42,819 nucleotides of DNA, taken from the IMG/VR virus record IMGVR_UViG_3300036713_000250, positions 1 to 42,819 of that record, one strand, 5' to 3'. Source of the DNA: a virus (Duplodnaviria > Caudoviricetes). The notes below the pieces were generated by a model that was not told the DNA's origin, searched no databases, and worked only from the letters and a program-made list of their open reading frames with translations. The translations under genes were made by a program, and so were the position numbers. Of the stretch, positions 8,784 to 38,664 are shown piece by piece. Each line of letters begins with the position of its first letter. Within the stretch, counting starts at the first letter, position 1.

Positions 8784-8816
8784 GTTAATATCTAGTAATA
8801 TTAACAACTTTATCTT

Positions 8817-9491
8817 ATGAAGACTGCGGTAATAATGCAACGTCAGTTTAATGGTAAAACTATTCGTCAAAATTCAAAGACGGAGTTTTTGAATTTAAAT
8901 GATCTCATGGATTGTTTTTTAGAAGATAATCCAAAAAGCACTAAGAAGGTAGAAAACTATATGCGTCTTAGCCAAACTCAAGAATTTGCTGAAACTATAA
9001 GGGAGGCTGAACTAGAAGCCAAAAAACAAAATACCCATAAAAATGGTGAATTAACTTTGCCCTTAATAGAGCCAGTAAAAGTAATTGAAACAAAAAGGGG
9101 AAAGAATGGGGGTACTTGGGTTCACCCATATTTATTTTTAGATTTTGCAATGTGGCTAAATCCTAAATTTAAATTGTGGGCAATGAGTATTATTGAAGAT
9201 AAATTAATTAAGTTAAGAAATGAAGCGGGGAATAAGTTTAAAGAGATGCAGCAAGCTTTAAAATTATCAGGAGCAGTAAGCCCTAGAGAATTTGCAAAAG
9301 AGGCAGCTATGATTAACATGATAATTTTCGGGACAAAGGCAGGAGCTAGAAATTCTGCGGACGAGGAAAAGCTTGATCTTTTAAATAAATTACAAAAATA
9401 TAATGCACATCTTATTTCTCAGGGGATGTCACACTCTTCAAGAAAAAAAGAATGTGAAAATTTTGTAAAGTTTTATAATTTTATTAAATAA
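8817..9491 (+). CDS. KilA-N domain DNA-binding protein
   Basis: IRQNSKTEFLNLNDL...YMRLSQTQEF...RGKNGGTWVHPYLFLDFAMWLNPKF is the KilA-N signature. Confidence 0.9.
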   Translation: MKTAVIMQRQFNGKTIRQNSKTEFLNLNDLMDCFLEDNPKSTKKVENYMRLSQTQEFAETIREAELEAKKQNTHKNGELTLPLIEPVKVIETKRGKNGGTWVHPYLFLDFAMWLNPKFKLWAMSIIEDKLIKLRNEAGNKFKEMQQALKLSGAVSPREFAKEAAMINMIIFGTKAGARNSADEEKLDLLNKLQKYNAHLISQGMSHSSRKKECENFVKFYNFIK

Positions 9492-9502
9492 CAAAAACAA
9501 TT

Positions 9503-9739
9503 ATGGAAAAGAAATATAAACCATTATATAAGATAGGTGATGTAATAGTGTTCACTTGCTTTGAAAGTGGAGGATTATTACAAACTGTTATTAAGTATGC
9601 TTATTTTGACGAAAAAGAAAAAGAATGGATGTATGTAGGTAAAACAGGAATAGAAGATTCTGATGGTTCAGTTTATGACTTTAAGCTTAATGAATGGATT
9701 AATACTATTTCTGAAAAAAATATCGCTTTCAAATTGTAA
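9503..9739 (+). CDS. Hypothetical protein
   Basis: 78-aa ORF with a TAAC motif 10 nt before the ATG. Confidence 0.7.
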   Translation: MEKKYKPLYKIGDVIVFTCFESGGLLQTVIKYAYFDEKEKEWMYVGKTGIEDSDGSVYDFKLNEWINTISEKNIAFKL

Positions 9740-9762
9740 TTCCCCACAACACCTGTTACAAT
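9734..9762 (+). promoter_or_regulatory. Putative lysis-cassette promoter TTGTAA-17-TACAAT (extended -10)
   Basis: -35 at 9734-9739, TG at 9754-9755, -10 at 9757-9762. Confidence 0.55.
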
Positions 9763-9787
9763 GTAAGTTGCTTATAACCATAACAAT

Positions 9788-10681
9788 ATGGCAAAAGAAG
9801 AATTATATGGTGGAGCGGTAGACAAGCCCGATCCAAGGGATTATAAAGCCGTCCATCTTCTTGGTGCAGAAATAGGAGGTTTACCAGATGAGGTGGATCT
9901 TTTTAATACTAATGCCAAGAACCAGGGCAACAGTATGAAATGTACGGCTTACGCTCTCACACACGTCTTTGAAATTCTTAATCGACTGGAACATCATTTA
10001 CAGATTGTATTGAGCGCAGACGAGCAATGGAGCAACCAGAAAGCAGATGGAGGAGCTAGTGAAGCTTATGGAGATTCGTTACAGCACGCTATGAAGATTT
10101 TAAAAGATAAGGGTTTAAAGAATAGGGAGAAAGGGATTGATTTAGACAAGTTCACAATTACTGGATATGCACGAGTTAATCATAGTGAAAACAGTTTTAA
10201 GGAGTGGTTGTCAAGGGGGTATCCAATATACACAGGAGGAACTTATACAGGCACTAATTTTAAGTTAGCAAGGAGAACAGGGTACTGGTCAGGGATAGAT
10301 GGAAAAAGGATTAGTGGTCATGCCTTTGCGATTGTTGGCTATGATAATAATGGTTTTAAAGCTCTGAATAGTTACGGTAAAGATTGGGGTAAATTCAAGA
10401 ACGGAACTTTTTATATTCCTTATAACAAAACACAAGATACTTATAATGGATATATTGTGTTTGATACAAAGGATATTAAGATGATTTATAGAGATGTATC
10501 AGAGAAGTCGCCGTATGCGGAAGCTATTAAAATTTGTTTAGATAACCAAGTTTTGAGAGGTCATAATTCTGATAATATTTATGATCCTAAAGATAGGTTT
10601 TTTAAACCAAATCAAGCAGTTACAAAGGCAGAACTAGCACAATTTGGAGCTAATTTAATTAAGAAATTTAACTTACAATAG
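9788..10681 (+). CDS. Papain-like (C1) cysteine peptidase with C-terminal SLH domain; putative lysin
   Basis: NQGNSMKCTAYA (Q, C), GHAFAIVGYD (H), LNSYGKDWG (N). SLH-like YRDVSEKSPYAEAI...FKPNQAVTKAE. Followed by a holin-like gene. Confidence 0.8.
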   Translation: MAKEELYGGAVDKPDPRDYKAVHLLGAEIGGLPDEVDLFNTNAKNQGNSMKCTAYALTHVFEILNRLEHHLQIVLSADEQWSNQKADGGASEAYGDSLQHAMKILKDKGLKNREKGIDLDKFTITGYARVNHSENSFKEWLSRGYPIYTGGTYTGTNFKLARRTGYWSGIDGKRISGHAFAIVGYDNNGFKALNSYGKDWGKFKNGTFYIPYNKTQDTYNGYIVFDTKDIKMIYRDVSEKSPYAEAIKICLDNQVLRGHNSDNIYDPKDRFFKPNQAVTKAELAQFGANLIKKFNLQ

Positions 10682-10682
10682 T

Positions 10683-10925
10683 ATGGAACAAACAATAACA
10701 CTTAGCGGATTAGCAGTATTATTAATTGGATTCGGTACACAGTTTTTGAAAAAGAAATATCCTAAGATTGATCCTCGTGTATTCTCTTTTGCAATATCAG
10801 CAGTATGCGGATTGATATATGCTTTAAGTAAAACCTTTATTCCAGAGGAAATATTAGCTAGATTGCTTACGTTTGGAATCCTAGCGTGGGGGGCGACTAC
10901 AAGCCTTTACCAGATACAAAAATAA
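10683..10925 (+). CDS. Putative holin
   Basis: 80 aa with 2-3 hydrophobic segments, 1 nt after the putative lysin. Confidence 0.7.
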   Translation: MEQTITLSGLAVLLIGFGTQFLKKKYPKIDPRVFSFAISAVCGLIYALSKTFIPEEILARLLTFGILAWGATTSLYQIQK

Positions 10926-10950
10926 TTATGATTGCGTTATTAGTACTTTT

Positions 10951-11017
10951 ACAAAAAACCAGCTCCTAGTTTATCAACCAATGGGTTACAGGAACTATCA
11001 GGAAGCTGGTTTTTTGT
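10951..11017. terminator. Long stem-loop / bidirectional terminator at the convergence of late and early arms
   Basis: ACAAAAAACCAGCT...AGCTGGTTTTTTGT outer stem with inner CCT/AGG, AGTT/AACT and AACC/GGTT pairing. Confidence 0.75.
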
Positions 11018-11426
11018 TTAGTAGTTCTGGGTTTTCATGGATGTTTCCTATTACTTTAATATTGTTGCGACATTGAGGAAACATGCTTATAGCTCTTAGC
11101 CCTACATCTTTTGGCAAAGACCAAATAGTAAATGAAGGGGCCATTAAACTTGAACTTTTACCGTTAAAGACATTTTCTTGTTCTTCATATATGTTATCCC
11201 ATTTCACTTCTCCTAACACTTTCGCCCCTTTATAGAACTCACACTCTAATATATCCCCTTCATAAATTTCTTTACTATTCTTGTCCTTGAGGCCCGTGTA
11301 TTGCATATAGATTTGATCTTCTTCAGAAACTGTTTCTCCAAAAAAGTCGCTCAATAAAGGATAGTCTCTAGAGTAATCCATTTCTTTTAATCTTTTATCC
11401 CATATCCTAAATTTTATTTCTCTCAT
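10998..11426 (-). CDS. YopX-family protein
   Basis: MREIKFRIWD...MQYTGLKDKNSKEIYEGDIL...VIGNIHENPELL. Confidence 0.92.
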   Translation of the reverse strand: MREIKFRIWDKRLKEMDYSRDYPLLSDFFGETVSEEDQIYMQYTGLKDKNSKEIYEGDILECEFYKGAKVLGEVKWDNIYEEQENVFNGKSSSLMAPSFTIWSLPKDVGLRAISMFPQCRNNIKVIGNIHENPELLNKKPAS

Positions 11427-11761
11427 TTTATAGGGGTTATTAATATTTCAATATATTCTTTCTTAGATTTAAACTTTTCTGCAGTTATACGTTTGACATA
11501 TTTATCATCTAGTAATATGCCAGATTCTTGCAGTGCGTCAAGCAATGGTTTCAGGAGATTATCTATATCAGTTGTAGCATAATGTTTGATATAGAATTTA
11601 AGATCAAGCGTACACCATTTAACTTCTTCATTATGTAGTTTGCAATCTTTAATTATCCAGCTAAATTCTTCCCTCCATTGTTTATATTTAGGAGTTTTAA
11701 ATTTACGTCCGCACCATGCTTGATTTACTGTCATTGGCTTAATATTGACTTGTAATTTCAT
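11423..11761 (-). CDS. rusA: RusA-like Holliday junction resolvase
   Basis: P-x-T-V-N N-terminal motif and DIDNLLKPLLDAL...GILLDDKYV catalytic motif. Confidence 0.85.
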   Translation of the reverse strand: MKLQVNIKPMTVNQAWCGRKFKTPKYKQWREEFSWIIKDCKLHNEEVKWCTLDLKFYIKHYATTDIDNLLKPLLDALQESGILLDDKYVKRITAEKFKSKKEYIEILITPIK

Positions 11762-12399
11762 AATAAAGATTGTTGTTTAAATGTTGTATCTTTTATATTA
11801 AAGGCTTCATTAAATATGTGTAAGCCAAGTTTAGGGTGTACACAATTTCTTAAAACTTGTGCGGGGCAATGATTGTTTTTGTAGTAAATATTTCCTTCAT
11901 ACTCTAGCCCTAGCCATTTTTTTAATTCTTCAGCTCCTTTTACATTATCTTTATCTATAAATCCAGAGGGGGTGGAAAAGTCTTTATAAGTAATATCAAA
12001 GTTGCACCAGATCCAATGTCTTCCTATTTCTTTTGGTTTTATAAGAGGATTATAATAAGCTTTTACGTTTTCAACTATCCACTTGCCCTTAAACAATTCT
12101 TTTAATAATATAATTTCCTGATACAAGCTCATATCAGGGTAAACTCTTATATCGTGCTTAGTGGCTTTTACCATCCTTGAATGGCTTTGACATGGTGGAC
12201 TACTCCAAATAAAATCAAACTCTTTAAAGTGTTCTAAAAGATATTCGTGTGCATCAGCTATTATAACTTTATCATTAGGGAAAAAGTCTTGATAAATTTT
12301 AGCAATATCTGGATTAATTTCTACCGCAGTTATATTATGATTGTTCCCCCATAACTTCCTATTACCTCCTATACCAGCATATAGATTTAATATTTTCAT
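11758..12399 (-). CDS. Compact DNA (cytosine-5) methyltransferase
   Basis: Motif I LYAGIGG, IV SPPCQSHS, VI VENV, X-like LRNCVHP. Confidence 0.85.
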   Translation of the reverse strand: MKILNLYAGIGGNRKLWGNNHNITAVEINPDIAKIYQDFFPNDKVIIADAHEYLLEHFKEFDFIWSSPPCQSHSRMVKATKHDIRVYPDMSLYQEIILLKELFKGKWIVENVKAYYNPLIKPKEIGRHWIWCNFDITYKDFSTPSGFIDKDNVKGAEELKKWLGLEYEGNIYYKNNHCPAQVLRNCVHPKLGLHIFNEAFNIKDTTFKQQSLL

Positions 12400-12548
12400 A
12401 TACCTATACCATTATGTTTTTTACCTGCTTTATTTTTCCGTTCAATAGTTTCATAGTCCTGTTTAATTTCTCCTTTTTCTATTTGTTCTTTGACATAATC
12501 AAGATAACACATTTTCTTTTTAGGTTTATCATTGACATGAGGATTCAT
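12396..12548 (-). CDS. Small hypothetical protein (ATG 12548 preferred over GTG 12632)
   Basis: ATGA overlap with the methyltransferase. The upstream extension runs through a hairpin. Confidence 0.55.
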   Translation of the reverse strand: MNPHVNDKPKKKMCYLDYVKEQIEKGEIKQDYETIERKNKAGKKHNGIGI

Positions 12549-12587
12549 GGTGATATTTTTATATTGTAAATTTTCATAGGATGAGGT

Positions 12588-12624
12588 TGCCAAGAGGAGA
12601 TAAAAATCTTCTTCCCTCTTGGCA
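12588..12624. repeat. Inverted repeat / stem-loop
   Basis: TGCCAAGAGG-17 nt-CCTCTTGGCA with perfect 10-bp arms. Confidence 0.85.
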
Positions 12625-12647
12625 TATCTCACAAAACAAGAAAGAAC

Positions 12648-12746
12648 TCAACAAAAGTTAACGGCTATATATAATAAACAAAAGGCTAAACCAGTAAAGA
12701 GTCCAATAATGGCTCCCTGTAAGAACTGAGTGATTTTATCGTCCAT
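12648..12746 (-). CDS. Unannotated 32-aa membrane peptide MDDKITQFLQGAIIGLFTGLAFCLLYIAVNFC
   Basis: Hand translation; TAAC 10 nt upstream; one hydrophobic helix. Confidence 0.65.
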   Translation of the reverse strand: MDDKITQFLQGAIIGLFTGLAFCLLYIAVNFC

Positions 12747-12819
12747 AGTTTTTGAGGTTACGAGATATACGTTTGTGTGAGCGTAAAAGGTTATATAGTT
12801 TTGTCCAAAGTTTTATCAT
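12736..12819 (-). CDS. Unannotated 27-aa cationic peptide MIKLWTKLYNLLRSHKRISRNLKNYGR
   Basis: Hand translation; TAAC 10 nt upstream; overlaps the next ORF. Confidence 0.5.
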   Translation of the reverse strand: MIKLWTKLYNLLRSHKRISRNLKNYGR

Positions 12820-12830
12820 TTATAAATTGG

Positions 12831-12983
12831 TTAAGAGTCACAAGCTTCAAAATATACTAACGTAGCGAAACAGTATAAAAATAATTTAAGCAACATGTAA
12901 TACCCTTCCGTTGGAAGTTTTGAGCCTAAAAGAATTGCGGCTGCAATTACCATAAAGATTATCCATTTTTTAAGCGTGTCCAT
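12831..12983 (-). CDS. Unannotated 50-aa two-TM protein (holin-like)
   Basis: MDTLKKWIIFMVIAAAILLGSKLPTEGYYMLLKLFLYCFATLVYFEACDS; TAAC 10 nt upstream. Confidence 0.7.
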   Translation of the reverse strand: MDTLKKWIIFMVIAAAILLGSKLPTEGYYMLLKLFLYCFATLVYFEACDS

Positions 12984-12994
12984 TTGTTTATTGG

Positions 12995-14287
12995 TTAGAT
13001 TCTAAAGTTAAAAGTTTCATCTACTGATTGTCCAGTAATTTCAGTTAAACAAGCTAATACATTTTTATTCCAATTGTAGTCAGAGCTTGCATATATTTTC
13101 CCAGTACCGCCCCCTCCTGGTGATAGTTGTCCTATATTAGTATGAGAACCTAAATACTGATTATTCAAAGTTGATCCCATTGCAAAGATAGCATCTTCTA
13201 AAGTGTCAAAAGATTTACTAGAGGTCGCCGTATTTCCAACATTTCCGATATTATTTTCTGTTCTAGTAGCTTTTCCTAATGTTGTGTCAGCCATAGCGAT
13301 ACATACTAAAACTTCTGGCTTAATTTTATGAGCCTCACCAGCCTTGTTAAATATATCTGCTAGAGGTTTAACGTCATCAGCAGCATATTGTTGTAAATAT
13401 GCAGCTAATTTGTCGTCATTACTTCTATGCTTCCTTAGAGCCTCTAAGTCTTCTCCATGAGGTGAGTTAGTATACTCAGGGTATGCAGTGGCGTTATGTT
13501 CTACTCGATACTCAAAGTGGATATGACATCCTGTACTCTTTTCACCCATTTGCAAATCTCCCACGCATCCCCCTGTACTTCCAATTTTCTCACCAGTCTT
13601 TACAATAGATCCATCATCTACCCAAATTTGTTTCATGTGTCCGATTGCAAAATTATAATGCACATTGTTCCAATCCCAATGAAGCTCTACAGTAAGCCCC
13701 ATAGTGTCATAATTCTCAACTATCTTAACAGTATATTCTTTAACATCGTCATGTATAACACCCTCATCATCCATCCATTCATAAGAGGGGGCATAAGCAA
13801 CAAGGTAACGACCATCAGTAGCTATATCAGTAGCCATATATCCGTTGTTGGCAAAGTGTTCTCTTTGTGATTGAGAAACATTTGCGGAGCTAATTCCATC
13901 TGCTCTATTGAATATATAATAAAGCTCATCAGGAGAGAGAGAGGCCGTAGCCTCTCCTTCCCCTGTACCCTCTCCGCTTCCTAACGAGTCAGTAATTGAC
14001 GCTGGAACCAAACAACCAGCATCAACGGTCGTACTTAAACTATGTACTTCTTCATACTCAATATCTAATTCATCATCATAAAAATCTGCTAATTGTTCTT
14101 TAGCTTGTTCAACATTGAACAAACAACTTTCATATTCTAGTTGATCTAATTCAGCTTGTTTTATCTTGATGGCTTCAATATAGTAATCAGCTGTTTTTGT
14201 GTGCATGGCATTCGATAATGCCATTGCGGGGATTGTAATAGCTAAGACAGCTATAATAGGAATAACATATTTTTTGACAGTTTCCAT
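12995..14287 (-). CDS. Secreted/membrane-anchored cell-wall hydrolase: M23 peptidase plus lysozyme-fold (glucosaminidase-like) domain
   Basis: N-terminal KKYVIPIIAVLAITIPAMA signal, then coiled coil. ATDIA, GHM, VKTGEKIGSTG and STGCHIHFEYR match M23. IKPEVLVCIAMADTTLG...NNIGNV...YAS..NW is lysozyme-like. Start 14287 chosen on the TAAC motif (ORF track: 14323). Confidence 0.8.
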   Translation of the reverse strand: METVKKYVIPIIAVLAITIPAMALSNAMHTKTADYYIEAIKIKQAELDQLEYESCLFNVEQAKEQLADFYDDELDIEYEEVHSLSTTVDAGCLVPASITDSLGSGEGTGEGEATASLSPDELYYIFNRADGISSANVSQSQREHFANNGYMATDIATDGRYLVAYAPSYEWMDDEGVIHDDVKEYTVKIVENYDTMGLTVELHWDWNNVHYNFAIGHMKQIWVDDGSIVKTGEKIGSTGGCVGDLQMGEKSTGCHIHFEYRVEHNATAYPEYTNSPHGEDLEALRKHRSNDDKLAAYLQQYAADDVKPLADIFNKAGEAHKIKPEVLVCIAMADTTLGKATRTENNIGNVGNTATSSKSFDTLEDAIFAMGSTLNNQYLGSHTNIGQLSPGGGGTGKIYASSDYNWNKNVLACLTEITGQSVDETFNFRI

Positions 14288-14398
14288 TTGTATGAGGTTA
14301 TGGATATTTTTGTTTTTTGACATTTATAGTATGTCGTACTTTTTATCTATTTTTATTTTTGTTTCATTTGGTGGGGTTAATTATTACTAACTATGTAT

Positions 14399-14427
14399 AT
14401 TCTAGCACACTACTTTTACAATGTCAA
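14399..14427 (-). promoter_or_regulatory. Sigma70 promoter TTGACA-17-TAGAAT with extended -10
   Basis: -35 at 14427-14422, -10 at 14404-14399, preceded by TGC. Confidence 0.85.
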
Positions 14428-14588: not shown

Positions 14589-14603
14589 TTTGTGTTTTAA
14601 GCT

Positions 14604-14843: not shown

Positions 14844-14855
14844 ATATTTGTTCAA

Positions 14856-15278: not shown

Positions 15279-15485
15279 TTAAGTGTTAGAATCTATTTCT
15301 TTCATTACTTTGTCAAAACAAGGTCTACAATATCCATGAGAGATACAGAGACTAATAGGCTTGTGAAAGAAAGCTTGCAGTTCTTGTATTTCTTTTATAA
15401 TTTCTTGCTCAGTAGTTGGAAGAGCCTCGTTGTTATCTCCCACTTCATGCTTACACTCACAGCATACTCTTTTAATATTGCTCAT
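15279..15485 (-). CDS. Small zinc-finger-like protein
   Basis: CCECK...SHGYCRPC. Confidence 0.7.
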   Translation of the reverse strand: MSNIKRVCCECKHEVGDNNEALPTTEQEIIKEIQELQAFFHKPISLCISHGYCRPCFDKVMKEIDSNT

Positions 15486-15736
15486 AGGTCTGGGTTAGGA
15501 ATAGCTTTTATATTATCATCAGCCACTTCTCCATAAGGATAATCACTAGCTGCTCCCGCCTCTCTAGCACATTCCTCAGAGCAATACATTTCACTTTCGA
15601 CCATAACGTCCCTACATCTTTTACACGTCTTAGCGAGCTTTTCAAAGCGTCCTATTTCATCTATTATCTTTTCAAGATGTAAGCCTTGACCCATAAATAT
15701 TTCCTCTCCCTGATTGTTTTCTATTGTAATTTTCAT
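15482..15736 (-). CDS. Small zinc-finger-like protein
   Basis: CKRC...YCSEEC. Confidence 0.7.
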   Translation of the reverse strand: MKITIENNQGEEIFMGQGLHLEKIIDEIGRFEKLAKTCKRCRDVMVESEMYCSEECAREAGAASDYPYGEVADDNIKAIPNPDL

Positions 15737-15943: not shown

Positions 15944-15961
15944 AGTTTTGAGGTTAGGAAA

Positions 15962-16238: not shown

Positions 16239-16889
16239 TTAAAATGGCAGTTCGTTGTCAACGTCTTCTGGCATTATCTCATTATCTTTTAATGGCTCTG
16301 TTTGATCTGCCTCTGCCTCTACAGGTCGAACGATAAAACTTGTTTGAGCTAATTCTTTTAACTTCTCTGTTAAGAACTCTTGTACTTCGATAAAATAGAT
16401 CTTCCAGTAAGTCTTTTTCTCGCTTTTCTTTTTATCAACTTCTGGAAAGCCATGTAACTTTTCTTTCTTATCAAAGTCATAGAAATAATTACTTAACTTA
16501 TCACCGTTTTGTTGGAAGCTAATACCTGTCTTGCGTCCTGTATCTGTTTCAATGTCGTAAGGATGTAGAGTTACAGGTTGTGATAAGTCAGCGTTGAATA
16601 CTTTGCATGCGAAATCTTGGAAGTATCGACCAGTTACAGGCATGGAAAGCGTTGCATCTTCCATTTTGACATTACAAATTTCTCCGAAAGTTGTTTCTTT
16701 AAAACTGATATCTATAATCTTTCCTGTCCAGTTCATATAGACTAGCTCATACTTAACACCTTTCTTACCGTCAGATGTTTCATACTCACGTTTTCTAGCA
16801 TCAGGATTGTCTTTATCAACTTCCTGTACTATGTTTCCCCCGATGATTTTTAAATAGGTTTTACTCCTATCTACGGTTTGTCCTGGCAT
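16239..16889 (-). CDS. Putative single-stranded DNA-binding protein
   Basis: Beta-rich, acidic tail ending DNELPF, adjacent to the exonuclease. Confidence 0.6.
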   Translation of the reverse strand: MPGQTVDRSKTYLKIIGGNIVQEVDKDNPDARKREYETSDGKKGVKYELVYMNWTGKIIDISFKETTFGEICNVKMEDATLSMPVTGRYFQDFACKVFNADLSQPVTLHPYDIETDTGRKTGISFQQNGDKLSNYFYDFDKKEKLHGFPEVDKKKSEKKTYWKIYFIEVQEFLTEKLKELAQTSFIVRPVEAEADQTEPLKDNEIMPEDVDNELPF

Positions 16890-16922
16890 ATTTTTTTTGG
16901 TTAAATATTAATATAGTTGGAC

Positions 16923-17645: not shown

Positions 17646-17827
17646 AAGGGTGAGGTTAGGTGAGTTAATAAGTTTTCTTGTAAACATTCTTTGCAAAAAT
17701 GAAATTCTTTTCTTCTCCCCACATGTTCTGTTATCTCACCTTTTGTTATCTCAATAGTATAGTAAGGATCTATATTTTTATCCATAACAAGCGTACATAT
17801 ATCGCATATAACATTAGTTTTAATCAT
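17642..17827 (-). CDS. Small zinc-finger-like protein
   Basis: CDIC...FCKEC. Confidence 0.7.
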   Translation of the reverse strand: MIKTNVICDICTLVMDKNIDPYYTIEITKGEITEHVGRRKEFHFCKECLQENLLTHLTSPL

Positions 17828-17831
17828 TGTT

Positions 17832-18023
17832 TTATTGGTTAGCTTGTTGTTTATCCCACTCTTCTTTTGAGGGAATTGAGATTTTCATATTATTTAACTC
17901 TAATTCTTTCACAATAAGCTCTCTAATCCATACGGATCTTTTTTTATAAATTTTCTTACAATGATTATCGGCCTTCTCCAGTAATTCTTTTGGCAAATAA
18001 AAATTTATTTGTTCACTATTCAT
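17832..18023 (-). CDS. Ribbon-helix-helix transcriptional regulator
   Basis: QINFYLPKELLEKAD...KRSVWIRELI; first gene of the leftward early operon. Confidence 0.8.
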   Translation of the reverse strand: MNSEQINFYLPKELLEKADNHCKKIYKKRSVWIRELIVKELELNNMKISIPSKEEWDKQQANQ

Positions 18024-18053: not shown

Positions 18054-18082
18054 ATTATATTTCACATAAAACTTAATGTCAA
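18054..18082 (-). promoter_or_regulatory. Perfect consensus promoter TTGACA-17-TATAAT (leftward)
   Basis: -35 at 18082-18077, -10 at 18059-18054. Confidence 0.9.
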
Positions 18083-18162: not shown

Positions 18163-18903
18163 ATGACTGAAAATAAATTTACAAAAATAGAAAATAATCT
18201 TTTAGAGGAAATAATAAAAACAAAACTAAATGGAACAGAGCTAAGAATTGTTTTACTGGTGCTAAGAAAGACAAATGGTTTTCAAAAAAAGGATGACTGG
18301 ATTAGCTATGGTAATTTTGAAAAAATTATACAAATAAAAAGGCCGAATATTTGGAAAGCTATAGTGTCACTAGTTACGAAAAAGTTACTAGTTACGAAAA
18401 AGTTACTAGGGAGGACGTTATACAGCATAAATAAGGAATATAATGCCCCACTAGTTACGAAAACGAAACTAGTTACGAAAACGAAACAAGGTAGTTACGA
18501 AAACGTAACACAGGTAGTTACGAAAAAGAAACCCACAAAAGAAAGTATTACAAAAGAAAATATACAAAAGAAAGTGCGCACTCAAAAAAAAATACAAAAA
18601 AATAGCTTTGGTGAATATGGTAAAATTAAACTAGGGGAAGCGGAGCTATTGAAGCTTTGCGCAGTATTTGGCCGCAAAAATGTTGAAAAATATATACAGA
18701 AAGTTGAGGATTGGGTCTTAGCTAAGGGAAAACCATATAAAAACGACGCAGCAGCTATTAGAATTTGGATGCGTAAAGATTTGGACGAGGGAAGGCTTGT
18801 AATAAACGAGTTCGATTTTTTGTTAAAGGATTTTAAAAATACTGAGGAAATGGATGAAGCTATAAACAAAGCATTAAAACTTAACAAAAAACAATATGCT
18901 TGA
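18163..18903 (+). CDS. Lambda O-like replication initiator
   Basis: FTKIENNLLEEI...LNGTELRIVLLVLRKTNGFQKKDDWIS resembles the Phage_rep_O N-terminus; internal iterons. ATG 18163 preferred because 18076 lies upstream of the promoter. Confidence 0.85.
   Translation: MTENKFTKIENNLLEEIIKTKLNGTELRIVLLVLRKTNGFQKKDDWISYGNFEKIIQIKRPNIWKAIVSLVTKKLLVTKKLLGRTLYSINKEYNAPLVTKTKLVTKTKQGSYENVTQVVTKKKPTKESITKENIQKKVRTQKKIQKNSFGEYGKIKLGEAELLKLCAVFGRKNVEKYIQKVEDWVLAKGKPYKNDAAAIRIWMRKDLDEGRLVINEFDFLLKDFKNTEEMDEAINKALKLNKKQYA
18371..18526 (+). repeat. Iteron cluster / replication origin: six copies of TAGTTACGAAAA
   Basis: Copies start at 18371, 18389, 18452, 18470, 18492 and 18515, followed by an A-rich tract. 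Confidence 0.9.
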
Positions 18904-25539: not shown

Positions 25540-25557
25540 TTTATAACCAATTAATTT

Positions 25558-26205: not shown

Positions 26206-26221
26206 TTTAACAAAATAATAT

Positions 26222-26983
26222 ATGTCAAAAGAAAGATATAAAGAATTAAAGAATAAGGGGTGGCAAAATCTTAATAAAGATGAGCGGGTTGAATATTCTA
26301 ATTTTAAGAATAGTTATGATGGAGCTGATGCAAATATGCCTAAGCCTACAGTTAGTCAGCCAAAAGAGAATACTGAGGAAAAGATTAGTTTAAGTAAGTC
26401 AGAGTTGTCTAAACTTTTGGAAGACGTGGCAGAGAAAGCGGTGCGCGAGCAGTATATGTCAAAGGATAAGGACGGAAACAAAAAATTATATGGGAAGTTT
26501 GGTGAATGGTCAGAGGTTGACGAAGCGGATAATGCTTTACAGACAGCGACTTTTAAACTGTGGCAAGAGTCAGCAGATCAAGAAAAAGGGTTGATAATCA
26601 AGGCTGATTACTTAAAGGATGAGTGGAATGAAGAAGAGCATAAGTTTAATAAAATTGTTTATAGGATTGAATTGCTATATACAGATGGAAAAACAGAGAC
26701 TAAGGATGTTGATTTAAGGCAACTGGTAAAAATTTCTGATGTTGAGAAAGTTAAGATTGTTAAGAATGATAGAAAGAAGATGGTGAAGACAGATGGTACA
26801 GTTATTGTTACACCTAAGAATAAAGACAATTATCAGGTTAGAAGAGTTGATTTTAATCCAATGGGAGACTCATCAGGAGGATTTGAAGTGCCTTTAACTG
26901 TTGAGAGGTATGAGGAAGTGTTTACTTTAAAACGTGACAATGGTCAGGAGTTTCAAGCAGAAGCAAAATATCTTAACATGTAA
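26222..26983 (+). CDS. Hypothetical protein
   Basis: 253-aa ORF with TAAC leader. Confidence 0.8.
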   Translation: MSKERYKELKNKGWQNLNKDERVEYSNFKNSYDGADANMPKPTVSQPKENTEEKISLSKSELSKLLEDVAEKAVREQYMSKDKDGNKKLYGKFGEWSEVDEADNALQTATFKLWQESADQEKGLIIKADYLKDEWNEEEHKFNKIVYRIELLYTDGKTETKDVDLRQLVKISDVEKVKIVKNDRKKMVKTDGTVIVTPKNKDNYQVRRVDFNPMGDSSGGFEVPLTVERYEEVFTLKRDNGQEFQAEAKYLNM

Positions 26984-28302: not shown

Positions 28303-28466
28303 TCTTTACTTTTAGCTTAAAACGTGCTAGTGATATAGACAGACTTTCGACATAGCACCCTCGTTACGGGGCTACAGGTATATGTAGCCTTTTTGGTTGC
28401 ATATATAAGTGCGTAAGGGGTTTTCGCATACCTCAATTTTTATTAATTTATTTAACCAAAACTAAA

Positions 28467-28877: not shown

Positions 28878-28903
28878 AAATTATTATTTAACAATTTAGA
28901 TCT

Positions 28904-29917
28904 ATGAGTGGATATAGTTTAATTTCATCACTTTCATTCTCAGACTTTGTAGATACTACTGATAGAGTACATGCAAAAGGTGAGATGTTAGTGGAAGATC
29001 TTGAGCCAGCTAAAAGTTTGTTCAAGGTTGTAAATGTGCCAATGCACACAGGAGACAGAAGAATTTTCGATGAGTATGATGGAGAAACTTATGCTCGATA
29101 TAAAATTGAAGGTGGGGACGCTTCAAAAGTTAAGGCTATCAAAGGATGGTCAAAAACTTGTACAATGAGAAGGTTTGCAGCTGAAATTGATATTACTTGG
29201 GAAATGCGTAACGTGGGTAAAGACCAAGAGATTATCAACCGTCTTACAAATCTTTCAAAATATTGTCCTCAGAGAATGGCGTTAGATCTTACACACAGAT
29301 TTACATTCGCAACTTCTACATCTTATACAGATATGGATGGGGAAACTGTTGATGTATCTGGTGGATCAACAACAGCAACAGCACTTGTTGATTCAACACA
29401 GGATTTGACAGGATCATCTAGTACTTACTCAACTGTAATTACTGGAAGTCCAGCTTTCTCAAAAGGAGCGTTTGAAGTGGCTAGAGAAAGAGCTAATACT
29501 CAAATTGTTAGCAACTTCAATGAAAGACGTGTTATGAACTTCAACACAATTGTAACAGGTGATGATCCTAGTACAGTTGATGCGGTTCGTACTTTCCTAA
29601 GATCTACTACAGACCCAACACAAAACAACTCAGGTGTAGTTAATACTTATCAAGGAGTTGCACGTCACGTGATCTTGCCTCGATTGGCTACTACAGCTAC
29701 AGGAGCTTATGATTCAACAAAAGCTAAATGGTGGTTTTATGTGGCAGCAGGTGAATGGCAAGGGTATCTTGGAATGTGGGAAGCACCTAATCTAAAAACA
29801 CCAGCTACAGGAAACAACGGTGAAGACATCCATAACGACAACTGGACATTTGGAACTAGAGCATCATGGGGTATTTGTCATGTTGTAGCTAGAGGTGTAT
29901 TAGGAAGTTGTCCGTAA
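28904..29917 (+). CDS. Major capsid protein
   Basis: 337 aa; position; HK97-like pattern YKIEGG...RRFAAEIDITWEM...WFYV...FGTRASWG. Confidence 0.8.
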   Translation: MSGYSLISSLSFSDFVDTTDRVHAKGEMLVEDLEPAKSLFKVVNVPMHTGDRRIFDEYDGETYARYKIEGGDASKVKAIKGWSKTCTMRRFAAEIDITWEMRNVGKDQEIINRLTNLSKYCPQRMALDLTHRFTFATSTSYTDMDGETVDVSGGSTTATALVDSTQDLTGSSSTYSTVITGSPAFSKGAFEVARERANTQIVSNFNERRVMNFNTIVTGDDPSTVDAVRTFLRSTTDPTQNNSGVVNTYQGVARHVILPRLATTATGAYDSTKAKWWFYVAAGEWQGYLGMWEAPNLKTPATGNNGEDIHNDNWTFGTRASWGICHVVARGVLGSCP

Positions 29918-30000
29918 AATTTTATTTCCGTTTATTCCTTAGAGCAACATAAGAACCTCGGTGGGTGGTGGTAAGGAAATAGACAATAACAAAAGAAAAT

Positions 30001-30738: not shown

Positions 30739-30762
30739 TAGTTAGTATTTAACAGTTTGATT

Positions 30763-32525: not shown

Positions 32526-32534
32526 TAATTATAA

Positions 32535-33056: not shown

Positions 33057-33071
33057 ATAATTAATAATAAT

Positions 33072-33626
33072 ATGCAAGCAAGCGAACGCAAAACACAGAT
33101 AGATACAACTACTCATGCAGGTATAATCATAGATTATGCTCATCATGAGGTGCATAGTGGAAGTCATTATTCTGTTAGAGGGTATCAAGATTTGGCTATA
33201 AATAACGTGCTTGATTTTACATGGCAAATGCCTAATACGACAAAATGGATTCATTGGACATGGAGGATTGAAACAGAAAGCGAAACGCAATGGAATGTAT
33301 ATGAAAAAGCGGTAGCCACTACTCCATTAGCCAATACTGTTACTCCTATTAATAATAATAGAAACTCATCTAATACATCAGGTACAACAATGAAATTTGA
33401 GAAGCAAACAAATCTAGCAGGGGCAAATGCTGATACAGATGTGACAGGTGCAACATTATTATGTTCTGGGATAAGTGGGGCAGGGAAAGATTCAGGCAGG
33501 GCGGATAGGAGCAACGAACTCATAATGAAACAAAACGCTTTATACTGTTTAAGGGCAATAGCAACAGCAGCAGGATATATAAACTTTGCGATGGAATGGT
33601 ATGAACATACAAATAAAACATTATAA
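33072..33626 (+). CDS. Hypothetical virion protein
   Basis: ORF track; IDYAHHEVHSG His cluster. Confidence 0.7.
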   Translation: MQASERKTQIDTTTHAGIIIDYAHHEVHSGSHYSVRGYQDLAINNVLDFTWQMPNTTKWIHWTWRIETESETQWNVYEKAVATTPLANTVTPINNNRNSSNTSGTTMKFEKQTNLAGANADTDVTGATLLCSGISGAGKDSGRADRSNELIMKQNALYCLRAIATAAGYINFAMEWYEHTNKTL

Positions 33627-33641
33627 TTAACAAACTTAAAC

Positions 33642-33932
33642 ATGGAAAAAATTAAACCAACAGATTATGTTGAGCCTGAAAAAGAGGGAGGGGTGTTAGA
33701 GATTAGTGAGAAGAAAGAGGCTGAATTAATTGCTAAGGCGATTGAATTATTGGGTGAGGATGCTTTGTCTTTAAAGGAGTTGATGGATAGAGTGGAAGCT
33801 TTTTATGTAGCTGATAACGTTCATTACACATCTGCACAATTGAAAGATGTTTGTGAGAAAGCAGGTTTACAACTTAATCCTCCAATAGAGCTAGAAGTTG
33901 AGGAAGTAATACCAGAAGTAATAACTAAATAA
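33642..33932 (+). CDS. Acidic hypothetical protein
   Basis: ORF track; TAAC leader. Confidence 0.7.
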   Translation: MEKIKPTDYVEPEKEGGVLEISEKKEAELIAKAIELLGEDALSLKELMDRVEAFYVADNVHYTSAQLKDVCEKAGLQLNPPIELEVEEVIPEVITK

Positions 33933-33934
33933 TT

Positions 33935-35149
33935 ATGTATAGGTATCCAAAAAATATGGGAGATAGGCAGGTATTTAGAGAAGATTTTACTAATACAAAT
34001 ACAACTACGCAGAATGGTGGAACTATAAACAATTCCCCAACTATAAATAAAGGTGTTACCTTAAATGGAACTACCCAGAATATTACATATTCAGACCCAT
34101 TTTTGGGGATTAAAACGGTAAAGATAACTCTTGAGGCTACTACAACTACAGAGGATATAATGAATTTAGATAGTGGTACTCATACTATTGAGGTGGGGGC
34201 AGGAACGGTTACAGCCACAGGTTTTTCTAGTCCAACTATTTATGTGGACGGTGTAGCCTCAAGCACCTTAACAACAGCAAAGAGTACTATTGTAATTACA
34301 ACGGATACAGCTTTTGACGCAACGGCTTTAGATATTGGAAAAGAAACAACCTATTTTGATGGAGTTATTTACAGGGTTGAACTTTATACTGAGGCGTGGA
34401 GTGCAGAAACTGTTTTGGACGACTTTGAAAACGATACTTATAACGAAGTTGATGCTAATAAGGCAGCAGTTTATTTACCTTTAAGAAGTAGATTTAATGA
34501 TGGTAGTAATGAGGTTACGGAAAATCTAGGTACTTCTTTAGCTAATGCAATTGTAGGGGATGGTTCGACTTCGACAACTTTTCCAACATTTTTAAATCCT
34601 CATGGTGCTAATCTTGATGGCGGAGATTATTTATATCTTACAAATAGTAACAAATTTGAATTTGATAATGATGAGCCTTTTAGTTTAGTTGTAGCGGTTA
34701 AGGATATGATTGATGATGGAAGTGGTGATTTGATAGTAGCAAAAACAAAGGCAGGATTTTTGACGGTAGGGAGTAATGGGTCAGAAGGATTTGATCTACT
34801 CTTTAACGGTGGAATAGCACAATTTAGGGTTAGAGATTCAAATGATGCAGCTTCTTTAGCTACTGGTACACAAAGTATAGTTGGCGGAACTCATGTAATA
34901 GTAGCGACTTTTGATTGGGTTAATTCAAAGATTTATATAGATGGGATATTAGATGACACAACAACAGCAGCCTCAATGAATGGTGATTTATCTCCTGAAA
35001 GTGGGAATTTAGTTTTAGGAGCTTATCAGACTCTTAACGGTGGATATTTGAAAGGGTCAATCTTAGATTTCTATTTATTCCCACAAGCTTTGACTTCACG
35101 ACAAGCAAGGTGGATGACAGCGTATCTGTTTAACAAATTAAATGTATGA
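33935..35149 (+). CDS. LamG/concanavalin-A-like domain tail protein
   Basis: FSLVVAVK...HVIVATFD...KIYIDG...LVLGA...LKGSILDFYLFPQALT. Confidence 0.75.
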   Translation: MYRYPKNMGDRQVFREDFTNTNTTTQNGGTINNSPTINKGVTLNGTTQNITYSDPFLGIKTVKITLEATTTTEDIMNLDSGTHTIEVGAGTVTATGFSSPTIYVDGVASSTLTTAKSTIVITTDTAFDATALDIGKETTYFDGVIYRVELYTEAWSAETVLDDFENDTYNEVDANKAAVYLPLRSRFNDGSNEVTENLGTSLANAIVGDGSTSTTFPTFLNPHGANLDGGDYLYLTNSNKFEFDNDEPFSLVVAVKDMIDDGSGDLIVAKTKAGFLTVGSNGSEGFDLLFNGGIAQFRVRDSNDAASLATGTQSIVGGTHVIVATFDWVNSKIYIDGILDDTTTAASMNGDLSPESGNLVLGAYQTLNGGYLKGSILDFYLFPQALTSRQARWMTAYLFNKLNV

Positions 35150-36726
35150 GTATAAAAGACAGTGCAAATTTAGTAAGAAATTGGAACTTCAGGAATGGAG
35201 GACTTTTGGATGAAACTGGAAATAGTACAACCGCAACCGTTACAAATAATATCCAATGGTTGAACTCAAGATATGGAAGATGTTTAAAATATGATGGTGA
35301 CTCTGGACGGTTGGATGTTGGAACTTCGGGTTTTGGGGCAGGCAACATTTCATTTATAGCTATAGTGAATTTAGAAAGTAGGGGAGAGTCTAATGTAGGT
35401 AGATTGTTTTTTAACGGAAAATTAGATGTAAGAACTTCTACTATTGGAGGTTTTAACGTGGCAAGGGATGGGTCTACTTTTGTGGACTCTGGGAATGTAA
35501 TAGATTATGGTACAGACTTTTATCACCTAGCCTTTACTAGCACAAGTGCAGGAGTTACAAATCTATATATAAACGGAATATTAAGTGGTGCAGCAGATCA
35601 AGACGCAGGAACGCCTGCAACAGCTACAACAAACGATTTTATAGGTAATAATAATACTGGAAGTAGAACTATCGACGGACGTATTTTAGAAATTCAAGGT
35701 TACGATACTATTCTAACTACTGAACAAATTGCTCAATCAGTAGCAGAGTGGAGGCAAGAGCCACATATAGGAACTTTAGCAAAGAAAAACTTTATTTATC
35801 CTTCTCCACTTAGAGATCAAGATGATGCTTTCTTTAATGGGGTTTTTGATTCTAACAAACTATTATCACAATTAGGTACTGGGAATCCAACTACGACAAC
35901 AAGTGGAATTATCCCCGCACGAGGAGTCTTTAGAAATGAGTTTGATATTTTAGGCGAAAAAGAGGGTAGCGCAGAATGGGATTTAAACCCTACAGATTTA
36001 ACTGATTATACTATTTGGGCTTTAGTTAAGTTGAATTCTAACCCTTCTAGTACATCTGCTGTAATTAGTACAGGAGTAGGGCGAGATGGTATTTTTATCG
36101 ATATTAATGGAATACCTTATGCACGATGTTTTACTACTTCTGAAAACAATGTAAAAGGATCTGCTTCGATTACTGGATCCGGATATTCCTGTTTAATCGC
36201 TACTTATAACAACACAAGTACAGAGAGCAAGTTTTACCTTGATGGTGTATTACAAGATACGCAAACAGAATACCCTATAAATCTTGATAGAGATGAGAGT
36301 TTTGTAGGGGATAATCCTAGAACTGGATTATCAGCAAATGGAGCTAGAATTAGGGTAGCAGCTTGTGGGATTTTCAATTCCATATTAAGTGATGCTGATA
36401 GAGCGGAATTGTGTGAATATGCAAAAAATATCCCTGTATATAAAAATACTTTTGAAGATGCACCAGTAAGTTTAGGGGCAACAAGCCAGGAATTAAACGG
36501 ATGGCGAATTGAAACTGGTACATGGAAAATTGGTGAAGATGCAACAGGTAAGCACTTATTATGTGTTACTGATGGTCAGGTTACTACACCGCTTGAGGGC
36601 GCGAGTTCATTTACTACTGATACTTTTCAGGAAACAGGAAGTGCTACTTTAACAAAGAATACTAATAACTTACAGATTGATGCGGTGGCAGGTGATAAAA
36701 TCTATTCAATAATCTTAACAGTCTAA
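35146..36726 (+). CDS. Tandem LamG-like domain tail protein
   Basis: YHLAFT...LYING...IG...DGRILEIQGYDTILT and a second unit TIWALVK...IATYN...FYLDG...IFNSILS. Confidence 0.75.
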   Translation: MSIKDSANLVRNWNFRNGGLLDETGNSTTATVTNNIQWLNSRYGRCLKYDGDSGRLDVGTSGFGAGNISFIAIVNLESRGESNVGRLFFNGKLDVRTSTIGGFNVARDGSTFVDSGNVIDYGTDFYHLAFTSTSAGVTNLYINGILSGAADQDAGTPATATTNDFIGNNNTGSRTIDGRILEIQGYDTILTTEQIAQSVAEWRQEPHIGTLAKKNFIYPSPLRDQDDAFFNGVFDSNKLLSQLGTGNPTTTTSGIIPARGVFRNEFDILGEKEGSAEWDLNPTDLTDYTIWALVKLNSNPSSTSAVISTGVGRDGIFIDINGIPYARCFTTSENNVKGSASITGSGYSCLIATYNNTSTESKFYLDGVLQDTQTEYPINLDRDESFVGDNPRTGLSANGARIRVAACGIFNSILSDADRAELCEYAKNIPVYKNTFEDAPVSLGATSQELNGWRIETGTWKIGEDATGKHLLCVTDGQVTTPLEGASSFTTDTFQETGSATLTKNTNNLQIDAVAGDKIYSIILTV

Positions 36727-36728
36727 TA

Positions 36729-37028
36729 ATGGGCGAAACAATAAAAAACAATGTAGTTAAAATAACAGTAGGAAGCATAATAGGAGTATTAATATTTTGT
36801 ATCTCGATGACTTGGTATGTGGCAGCGGAAAGAGGAAAAATGTGGGATAAATTACAAACATGTGAGATAGGGATGGAGCATATAACAACAGAATTAAATA
36901 AAATGCAGGTACAAATTGACGAAAACGAAACTACAGGGACAGAGGTTAAAGTTAAGTTAGCAAGCATTGAAGCTCAACTAGCAGGCATAACCATAACTTT
37001 ACAAGAAATTAAACAAGCAGTGAAATGA
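36729..37028 (+). CDS. Membrane protein with TM helix and coiled coil
   Basis: ITVGSIIGVLIFCISMTWYVAA followed by heptad repeats. Confidence 0.7.
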   Translation: MGETIKNNVVKITVGSIIGVLIFCISMTWYVAAERGKMWDKLQTCEIGMEHITTELNKMQVQIDENETTGTEVKVKLASIEAQLAGITITLQEIKQAVK

Positions 37029-37156
37029 AAGAATTAAAGGAATTAATAGAGATCTATCAAATGGAGAACAGGAGGCAGCATACTGTGATTAAGGAGTCGA
37101 TGAAAGAAATGATAAAAAAACTAGATAAAATTGAAAAATTATTAACAGATAAATAA
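37025..37156 (+). CDS. Unannotated 43-aa coiled-coil protein (MKELKELIEIYQMENRRQH...)
   Basis: ATGA overlap upstream and TAATG overlap downstream. Confidence 0.65.
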   Translation: MKELKELIEIYQMENRRQHTVIKESMKEMIKKLDKIEKLLTDK

Positions 37157-38664
37157 TGAGTACATCTAAAATAATGCAGAAACCAGTTATCTTAGGAATA
37201 GATGGGGCGACAATACAAGTAGCTCATCCTAATATATCTAAGTATCCTCGTACGCAATTAGCAGCACAAATAGCAGCAAGTGGGGTTACAATGACGGTAA
37301 GTGATAACAATGGCTTTGAAGATAATGATTGGTTTATTGTGGGAGAGATAGGAGATAATAGAACAGAGGAGGGAGATGTTAATGGAGCGGTGACAAGAGG
37401 TACATCCTTAACTGTTACAAATACCTTAAAGTTTGCACACGAATTAGATAGTCCAGTTACTAGAATACAAGAGAGAGGTATTAAGATTTATGGGGCAGCT
37501 ACAGATGGAGGAGCAGGTACTCTTATTGCTTCTGTAGATGCGATAACAACACCTATTGCTGATGCTGTAAGTATTCAATGGGATAGACCTGTTTATTCTG
37601 AATACACTTTAATATCTACTGATACAACTTATGCTTATTATTTTGTTAAATTTACAGATGGCACTACAGATAGTGCAGCGAGTGATTACATACCTGCGAC
37701 TGGATGGACAGAAAGTCATGTAATTAAAATGATTGAACATGCTTTAGATGAAACGGATTCAGTTTTAGATGATAAAAATATTACTTTAGACATGTGCGTA
37801 AAATGGGCTAATGAATGTCAACAACAGATAACACAGTATAAATATCAAGATCCTGTAAGTGGACATTTACAGCATGTAGATTGGGATTTTGAAGTGGTTG
37901 AAGACACAAGTTTAACAGTAAGTGAGAATGAGATTGAGTATGCTTTGTCAGGGATGACAACCTCGTTGAAATATACTGATTCAGATAGAGCTATAATAAG
38001 TGTGAAATTGGGGTCAAAGAAGCCGTTACAAAAGATTACTATAAAAGAGTTTGATGAGGAGATGGAGAATAAGCCAAGAACTGAGTTAGCAGCAGGGGTT
38101 ACAGCAGGAGATACGAGTATTACAGTTGATTCTAATGTAGAGTTTGAGGATAGTGGAACTTTGTATATTGGTAGTGAAGAGGTTACATATACAGGAAAGA
38201 CTAGCACAGATACTTTTACTGGTATTCCTGCTAGTGGAACTGGGTCTTTTTCTTCTAGTCATTCAATAGATGATCCTGTTTGGCAAAACGTAAGTCCAGA
38301 TTTGCCTACAAAATATACTATATTTAATGGAAAGCTTTTTACAAACAAGCCTATTAAAGCAGACTATGAAAATTATCCTATAAAGATAAGAGGGTATAAA
38401 GCTTTAGATGATTTAACAGAGGCAAGTGACCAGACAGAGGTTTCTTTTTCTAACGTATTTCATTTATTTATTCAGGCAAGGATAGAGCGGAGAAAAGGGA
38501 ATGAAGAGAAAGGAGCTTTTTATTTACAAGAGTTTGATAAACAGGTTTTGAATAACGCTTTAGCTAATGATGTGCCTATTATAGATAATCAAACATATTA
38601 TAATTTTATATCAGACGACAATTTAGGAAGTTGTGAAGATGCTTCTTGTGATTGTTGTAAATAA
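37156..38664 (+). CDS. Putative head-tail adaptor with inserted beta domains
   Basis: Helical KWANECQQQI and FHLFIQARIERRKG segments typical of adaptors; precedes the nozzle-like gene. Confidence 0.55.
   Translation: MSTSKIMQKPVILGIDGATIQVAHPNISKYPRTQLAAQIAASGVTMTVSDNNGFEDNDWFIVGEIGDNRTEEGDVNGAVTRGTSLTVTNTLKFAHELDSPVTRIQERGIKIYGAATDGGAGTLIASVDAITTPIADAVSIQWDRPVYSEYTLISTDTTYAYYFVKFTDGTTDSAASDYIPATGWTESHVIKMIEHALDETDSVLDDKNITLDMCVKWANECQQQITQYKYQDPVSGHLQHVDWDFEVVEDTSLTVSENEIEYALSGMTTSLKYTDSDRAIISVKLGSKKPLQKITIKEFDEEMENKPRTELAAGVTAGDTSITVDSNVEFEDSGTLYIGSEEVTYTGKTSTDTFTGIPASGTGSFSSSHSIDDPVWQNVSPDLPTKYTIFNGKLFTNKPIKADYENYPIKIRGYKALDDLTEASDQTEVSFSNVFHLFIQARIERRKGNEEKGAFYLQEFDKQVLNNALANDVPIIDNQTYYNFISDDNLGSCEDASCDCCK

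Follow-up and report, generated by a model that had tools for sequence, protein, structure and literature searches.

A TAAC signal at fixed spacing upstream of start codons in a tailed phage with a probable Gracilibacteria-class host

The window considered here is the whole of virus record IMGVR_UViG_3300036713_000250 (Duplodnaviria; Caudoviricetes), a tailed-phage genome of 42,819 nucleotides (nt). Its genes almost never carry a Shine-Dalgarno (SD) sequence, and in many of them the tetranucleotide TAAC is found 9-11 nt upstream of the ATG. TAAC is a real, selected, non-SD signal and is very probably a translation-initiation element. New here are the strength of TAAC in this phage family, its confinement to a single class among the Patescibacteria sampled, and a signature of SD-blind ribosomes in rpsU, the gene for ribosomal protein bS21, in that class. 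The explanation that we favour, with a probability of roughly 0.6, is that UAAC would be an enhancer read by a protein on the SD-blind ribosome of a Gracilibacteria-class host.

The TAAC signal in the phage genome and its relatives

When TAAC-N(n)-ATG is counted over the whole window, occurrences peak at n = 9, 10 and 11 on both strands (10, 18 and 5 on the plus strand; 6, 8 and 1 on the minus strand), over a background of 0-4 at the remaining spacers in the range 4-17. A motif-blind set of 54 starts, which holds a few wrong ones, was taken from the longest open reading frames (ORFs), using the first ATG that overlaps the upstream gene by no more than 17 nt. In this set TAAC stands at spacer 9-11 in 24 cases (8 at 9, 13 at 10, 3 at 11), versus 4 of 275 internal in-frame ATGs (Fisher p = 1e-17), and shuffling the same upstream 30-mers 20,000 times gave a mean of 1.5 and a maximum of 8 of 54. 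The SD-like 4-mers scored (GGAG, GAGG, AGGA) precede none of the 54 starts but 57 of the 275 internal ATGs, and a duplex with the canonical 16S tail reaches -7 kcal/mol at a single window start (1/54). The position-specific non-SD element proposed in the first-pass annotation, together with the near absence of SD sequences noted there, is thus supported by the window counts, its role in initiation being what the sequence suggests.

All 27 starts listed in that annotation do have TAAC at the spacer given. Its caution that some starts had been chosen with the help of the motif applies to three of them (12746, 12819 and 14287), and these three are outside the blind set. Hand correction, which changed six blind starts and added the three motif-chosen ones (one entry is off by one base), gives TAAC at spacer 8-11 in 28 of 54 starts and TAAT in 9 more. 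The signal had been called genome-wide; this holds in that both early/replication and late/structural genes carry it (8/23 and 16/31, respectively), and does not hold in that only about half of the genes do.

On the plus strand, TAAC has spacer 10 at 9489..9492 (ATG 9503), 10669..10672 (ATG 10683), 18882..18885 (primase-helicase gene, ATG 18896), 25544..25547 (ATG 25558), 26208..26211 (ATG 26222), 26974..26977 (ATG 26988), 28453..28456 (ATG 28467), 29987..29990 (ATG 30001) and 33628..33631 (ATG 33642); spacer 9 at 9775..9778 (peptidase C1-SLH gene, ATG 9788), 30750..30753 (ATG 30763), 33922..33925 (ATG 33935), 36716..36719 (ATG 36729) and 37143..37146 (SU10-adaptor-like gene, ATG 37156); and spacer 11 at 8802..8805 (KilA-N gene, ATG 8817), 28889..28892 (major capsid gene, ATG 28904) and 35131..35134 (ATG 35146). 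On the minus strand, spacer 10 is found at 12757..12760 and 12830..12833 (ORFs of 32 and 27 codons, ATG 12746 and 12819, both starts chosen with the motif), 12994..12997 (ATG 12983), 15285..15288 (ATG 15274), 16900..16903 (ATG 16889) and 17838..17841 (ATG 17827); spacer 9 at 11436..11439 (YopX gene, ATG 11426), 14297..14300 (M23 peptidase gene, ATG 14287, with an alternative in-frame ATG at 14323), 15953..15956 (ATG 15943) and 17655..17658 (exonuclease gene, ATG 17645); and spacer 8 at 15494..15497 (ATG 15485), a site absent from the earlier list. The TAA is the stop of the upstream gene ahead of ATG 9503 and ATG 12983, and the motif lies within upstream coding sequence ahead of ATG 10683, 18896, 26988, 33935, 35146 and 36729 on the plus strand and 11426, 15274, 17645 and 17827 on the minus strand.

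These positions bear on the possibility that ribosomes terminate at the TAA and, by coupling, re-initiate 10 nt further on. The TAA does serve as an upstream stop at 2 of the 24 blind-set sites, and at 11 of 77 sites in the cellular operons described below. However, 22 of the 24 window sites are not stops, 10 lie within the translated upstream gene and several others follow gaps of 80-385 nt, so that re-initiation is a very improbable source of the motif; the statement of the first-pass annotation that TAAC persists inside the tail of the upstream gene holds. Nor did the start-calling rule produce the peak: with the main spacers, 9 and 10, TAA and ATG are in different reading frames. Three possible sources were tested, namely upstream stops, bias in the calling of starts and base composition, and each leaves the peak unexplained.

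The fourth base of the motif carries information of its own. At 14%, C is rarer in the genome than any other base, and it follows TAA in 24 of 37 in-register cases and in 9 of 75 cases in other registers. Where genes are tightly packed (pairs selected by gap alone), the Asn codon of an in-register T|AAY is AAC in 5 of 6 cases in the window against a background of 66 of 273 (p = 0.004), and in 15 of 27 against 661 of 2545 when the window is pooled with 30 related loci (p = 0.001). Since in-register Asn codons favour AAC, the C of the motif is selected at synonymous sites. This evidence also bears on whether TAAC simply results from leaders being selected to be A/U-rich and unfolded, with no specific reader. 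Starts do fold weakly (mean -1.7 kcal/mol with the motif and -2.0 without it, against -4.6 at internal ATGs), and the spacers between TAAC and ATG contain 4% G. Yet the shuffles that gave 1.5 of 54 keep composition, the peak is three bases wide, and the preferred fourth base is the rarest one, synonymous sites included; such an origin is therefore unlikely.

TAAC might also be part of the -10 box of leaderless transcripts, since GeneMarkS-2 group C boxes are found some 10 nt ahead of the start (PMC6028130). By sequence, no -10/-35 features are seen at TAAC sites: across 62 sites from the window and its three closest relatives, TAACnT occurs 9 times and TATAAC 4 times, with a -35 box at 16-18 nt in 1-3. 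Moreover, the motif precedes operon-internal and overlapping genes, and the best promoter-like site, a perfect TTGACA-17-TATAAT at 18054..18082 (minus strand), ends 31 nt upstream of ATG 18023 and predicts a leadered early transcript. On these grounds a -10 box is extremely improbable. The canonical sigma-70 promoters claimed in the first-pass annotation rely on a few sites: the upstream gaps hold three TTGAC-N-TAnnAT sites; one 12/12 site, that at 18054..18082, lies ahead of the early leftward operon, and a TTGACA-17-TAGAAT site at 14399..14427 (minus strand) is in the gap upstream of the M23 gene. The sigma-70 scan of the window overall found 71 sites against 58.9 +/- 7.6 in shuffles, which is not clearly over chance.

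The major capsid gene (28904..29917, plus strand), whose close relatives are labelled 'capsid protein' in UniRef, was used as the query for related phages and for the host link, and returned 991 homologues. In 30 pooled related loci (28 viral loci and two from metagenome-assembled genomes (MAGs), some of them near-duplicates), TAAC precedes 101 of 476 called starts versus 22 of 2678 internal ATGs, the rate per locus ranging from 0 up to 14/21. Starts defined by homology were dropped if the match begins after residue 15, if no ATG was present up to 30 nt from where it was expected, or if the leader is identical; of the 81 that were kept, 25 have TAAC at spacer 9-11, 51 have TAAC or TAAT at 8-12, and 2 have an SD sequence, so the motif recurs in related phages. 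The three closest relatives of the window have TAAC at 38 of 64 starts. The signal of the capsid family is UAA(C/U), and it is sharpest in the closest relatives of the window. Two capsid relatives, L030 and L032, differ from the rest of the family in that many of their genes end in TAG (13/24 and 8/23). A spring phage, L160 (MW202577), is SD-less, with TAAT at 9 of 40 starts and no TAAC at spacer 9-11; it is possibly another patescibacterial phage.

Host class, its ribosomes and a proposed mechanism

Named relatives give no host for the window phage: its capsid has no match among INPHARED phages, terminase matches do not exceed 36%, and sequence clusters likewise point to no host. In GTDB, two MAGs were found with relatives of the capsid, one from Peribacteria (G001) and one from Clostridia. 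The class of G001, which we take to be Gracilibacteria in GTDB naming, forms one clade in the tree with support 1.00 and is referred to below as the class. The capsid profile matches 3 of 401 genomes of this class; among 401 genomes from across the phylum it matches only the class members G001 and G042, and among 300 Clostridia genomes (one unscored) only the seed MAG and, weakly, one stretch of 43 residues. The one integrated relative is in G435, in which a module of terminase, SU10-like portal, capsid, Gly-rich protein and amidase genes (L167:8881-19972, contig G435:C6) adjoins a LexA-like/Y-family polymerase pair and is joined on one contig to host genes, dnaA and gltX among them, code 25 being used throughout, with TGA in frame in both parts. 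Its capsid is 45% identical to that of the window over 293 amino acids (aa), a neighbouring 136-aa gene is also shared, and TAAC stands at spacer 8-12 in 6 of the 15 prophage starts. The phage contigs of G001 were not counted as host evidence, since G001's own genes are without the motif.

The first-pass annotation had taken TGA stops in the window as an argument against a code-25 host. This argument is weak: in the ten TGA-ended genes a second stop follows 1-29 codons further, so that read-through would add only 1-29 residues. A code-25 host remains compatible with the window because of these second stops, because code-11-compatible phages of code-25 hosts have been described (Liu et al., PMC10746230), and because the integrated relative is itself in a code-25 genome.

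A host in the Bacteroidota, or in another SD-blind phylum, would make TAAC a local form of the A-12/A-13 element. Three Bacteroidota phages were compared, Flavobacterium phage stinky9-1 and, both in part, Cellulophaga phage phiST and Bacteroides phage LoVEphage. These share the register of the motif, with TAAA at spacer 9-11 in 22/51, 19/51 and 9/56 starts, respectively; the 216-aa protein encoded at 16889 has most of its matches in Cellulophaga phages (36% over half of the protein), and CATTAAC ranks first among the motifs of one Bacteroidales genome in a supplement of PMC6107228. TAAC itself, however, is found at 1/51, 1/51 and 1/56 starts of the three phages, and AAAA at spacers 7-11, dominant in them, occurs 0 times in the window. 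TAnnTTTG, the Bacteroidota promoter consensus, is present in the upstream gaps of these phages (9, 3 and 4 copies) and absent from those of the window, which hold the three TTGAC-N-TAnnAT sites instead. Together with a capsid family integrated in a Gracilibacteria-class genome, this makes a Bacteroidota host unlikely. The host is probably a patescibacterium of the Gracilibacteria class, as judged from relatives rather than from this genome; the Patescibacteria suggested at first are thus supported, and narrowed by the integrated capsid relative and by a class-restricted TAAC peak in cellular genes.

This peak was found in ribosomal-protein operons with homology-supported starts, from 40 genomes of the class (of 60 matches) and 60 other Patescibacteria (of 81), chosen mostly for long contigs. 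SD sequences precede 8 of 643 ribosomal-protein starts in the class versus 339 of 1079 in the other Patescibacteria. TAAC that is not a stop was counted at spacers 8-12, 14-18 and 19-23, giving 66, 19 and 7 in 582 class starts outside the Peribacterales, 0, 0 and 1 in 61 Peribacterales starts, 8, 22 and 8 in 410 starts of other SD-poor Patescibacteria, and 18, 15 and 11 in 669 starts of SD-rich ones. Among the Patescibacteria sampled, the positional TAAC peak is limited to the Gracilibacteria class minus the Peribacterales. In general genes, TAAC at spacer 8-12 precedes 17 of 59 starts in G040 versus 0 of 323 internal ATGs; in G304 it precedes 5 of 15. The wider survey of general genes in G040's order covered four 15-kb stretches. 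G040's order is probably Peregrinibacteria-like, because its 16S tail types resemble the 'Ca. Peregrinibacteria' rows in the S4 table of PMC6107228. Within the Peribacterales, L056, L061, L062 and L064 have C/U-rich leaders that lack both the SD and the TAA motif, so that the class shows a third style of initiation.

Pairing of UAAC with rRNA, either by a shifted 3' tail or by an internal GUUA close to the mRNA channel, would suit the SD-like spacing and the loss of CCUCC in 20 of 41 class 16S tails. Internal GUUA columns do exist, one of them in 17 genes of G040's order and in no Peribacterales gene. However, two other internal columns are common to the Peribacterales, which are motif-less, four mostly A-U pairs make a very weak duplex, and GUUA is absent from the first 18 nt of 41/41 class tails (two further loci lack the anchor). 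The complementarity to 16S rRNA raised in the first-pass annotation is thus missing from the tails, and pairing with rRNA is improbable. Since no class tail has GUUA and 20 are without CCUCC, UAAC is not an alternative SD.

Evidence on the ribosome itself comes from rpsU, whose loci (L218-L222, L238-L270) are best-scoring matches, with identity confirmed for two. An SD duplex of -7 kcal/mol or stronger, mostly -13 to -20, precedes rpsU in 21 of 38 class loci, compared with 7 of 643 other ribosomal-protein starts; by the genome's own 16S tail, the rpsU SD is present in 10 of 13 cases where CCUCC is kept and 0 of 6 where it is not. From the strong SD of rpsU and hardly any at other ribosomal-protein genes, as in Flavobacteriia, we infer that many ribosomes of the class are SD-blind, and bS21-type occlusion of the anti-SD seems fairly likely in at least part of the class. 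Two aromatic columns near the C-terminus of class bS21 are conserved (34/38 and 33/38), and the match to the F. johnsoniae chain is weak only (E 0.13-0.41). Five of five class genomes contain bS1-like ORFs with 3-4 S1 domains. A hairpin that pairs the 16S anti-SD with a GGAG-like arm just downstream (L085-L096, L182-L217, L227-L235), the arm co-changing with anti-SD drift (CUCU/AGAG, UUCCC/GGGGA), was dropped as an anti-SD masking device, being present in 3/3 SD-rich Patescibacteria with a readable tail; it is probably a precursor-processing hairpin.

We suggest the following mechanism. On host ribosomes made SD-blind by bS21, which would hide the anti-SD while rpsU is autoregulated via its own SD, UAAC 9-11 nt upstream of AUG would act as an initiation enhancer of SD-less phage genes. 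The element U(-14)A(-13)A(-12)C(-11), in a G-poor and weakly folded leader, would be the counterpart of the Bacteroidia A-13/A-12, with C as its preferred form. Its reader might be a small-subunit protein of the host ribosome (bS1 or one of the platform) and not 16S pairing; a protein reader is, on the sequence evidence, somewhat favoured. Host genes would rely on UAA(C/U/A), and the strongest form would stand ahead of many phage genes. More tentatively, and in our view short of even odds, the class may have evolved the SD-blind ribosome and the autoregulation of bS21 by a lone rpsU SD independently of Bacteroidia, along with a protein-read UAAC code whose strongest form its phages adopted, such that the motif marks phages of the class.

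Several observations weigh against this explanation. In the phages, about half of the window genes are without TAAC, and the relative L026 has an SD upstream of its capsid gene. In the cells, the motif is missing from the Peribacterales, and general genes have TAAC at 8-12 in 0/9 (G052), 1/11 (G019) and 1/11 (G212) cases; host genes of G042 have it in 2/37 and those of G435 in 2/61. No sampled cell reaches the TAAC rate of the phage, the cellular peak being broader and weaker. Among SD-poor lineages, the comparison covers Patescibacteria and three Bacteroidota phages. Regarding the host, the capsid family is found in 0 of 205 genomes of G040's order, where cellular TAAC is strongest; the G435 portal is not detectably similar to that of the window, so that the link is at family level; and the matches in G001 and G042 are phage-only contigs, possibly misbinned, with another in a Clostridia MAG. 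As for the ribosome, 17 of 38 rpsU genes have no SD, and only 23 of 61 class genomes gave a bS21 match (E <= 0.001), these proteins being divergent and some maybe missed; bS21 is reported to be often missing in these lineages (PMC9297842). In addition, even in F. johnsoniae bS1 is so far a postulated reader of A-12/A-13 (PMC13000457).

Other features of the phage genome

A near-identical direct repeat lies at both ends of the window (1-349 and 42471-42819; 300 identical bases, copy distance 42,470), which indicates that the genome is a complete circle. Because the genome is circular, the ORF called at 54 is the continuation across the join of the ORF starting at 42008. Pfam and PHROGs recognise terminase, primase-helicase, replication protein O, RusA, methylase and tail-adaptor genes, and no tRNA genes were found in the window. 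Within the replication protein O-like gene, short direct repeats at 18350-18534, with TAGTTACGAAAA-like units spaced 18-23 nt, are reminiscent of lambda-type origin iterons. At 9788-10681 a papain-like peptidase is fused to an SLH domain and adjoins an 80-aa hydrophobic ORF; only 14 homologues were found, and the two genes are a candidate for an unusual lysis module. A 1765-aa protein encoded at 3134-8431 has an ART-PolyVal-like domain (E 3.5e-7) and is probably injected.

Comparison with known systems

The findings bear on how bacteria that lack SD sites choose their start codons, for which the element of Bacteroidia is a diffuse A run whose reader was not resolved by cryo-EM. A sharper, four-base element with a preferred C in a second, distant lineage would be easier to mutate and to trap structurally, and the pattern at rpsU leads one to expect a second instance of anti-SD masking. 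TAAC also improves start calling in these genomes, and it may help to recognise phages whose hosts are uncultured members of the Gracilibacteria class. A literature search (few subscription journals; bioRxiv supplements and GeneMarkS-2 motif tables outside its reach) found no UAAC element or rpsU SD described for these bacteria.

The element resembles an SD site in being a short motif at a constrained distance from the AUG, and differs from it in having no complement in the 16S tail and in the absence of SD 4-mers (0/54). Huge phages with S1-like genes are also known to have SD sequences only rarely (PMC7162821). Among lineages of the Candidate Phyla Radiation, variant or missing anti-SD sequences and scarce SD sequences are described for Peribacteria, Peregrinibacteria and some Parcubacteria (Tsurumaki 2022, PMC9297842; Amin 2018, PMC6107228; Estrada 2024, PMC10783764). 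Unlike the present analysis, the excerpts of these reports name no motif that replaces the SD, and the top motifs given there for Peregrinibacteria are unrelated and weak.

In Flavobacteriia, bS21, bS18 and bS6 occlude the anti-SD and rpsU is autoregulated (Jha 2021, PMC7797042; McNutt 2023, PMC9976891). The class is similar in its strong, extended rpsU SD (21/38 loci, compared with 60% in Flavobacteriia), which other ribosomal-protein genes hardly have and which is commoner with CCUCC, and in the conserved aromatic residues near the C-terminus of bS21, whose correspondence to Tyr54 is tentative. It is dissimilar in that, where the tail of a class genome is variant, the rpsU SD disappears (0/6) and does not co-vary, and the class case is a sequence pattern. 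In a ribosome of the Flavobacteriia type, the C-terminal tyrosine of bS21 stacks on A1534 and a pocket of the platform binds the 16S tail.

The closest comparison is with initiation in Bacteroidia. Group B of GeneMarkS-2, non-SD sites with fixed spacing, comes almost entirely from the FCB (Fibrobacteres, Chlorobi and Bacteroidetes) group (PMC6028130), and the window shows two of its traits: SD sequences are rare, and one motif stands at a short fixed spacing ahead of first and internal operon genes. In F. johnsoniae, mutation of A-12/A-13 lowers translation (Baez 2019, PMC6847099), so that element is proven by mutation, whereas that of the window is recognised in sequence. The first-pass annotation had set the phage apart from Bacteroidota. 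This stands for the fourth base, UAA-C/U here as opposed to an A run of the TAAAA type (TAAC is at 44% of starts here and about 2% in the three Bacteroidota phages), for the promoters, which are TTGACA/TATAAT-like and not TAnnTTTG, and for the likely host, a patescibacterium. It does not stand for the register. In both systems most genes are without SD, AA occupies -13/-12 (in the window the frequency of A is 0.57 at -13 and 0.69 at -12), first and internal operon genes are included, leaders are weakly folded, and the reader would not be 16S pairing. Because it has the same register as A-13/A-12, the TAAC signal parallels that of Bacteroidia rather than being unrelated to it.

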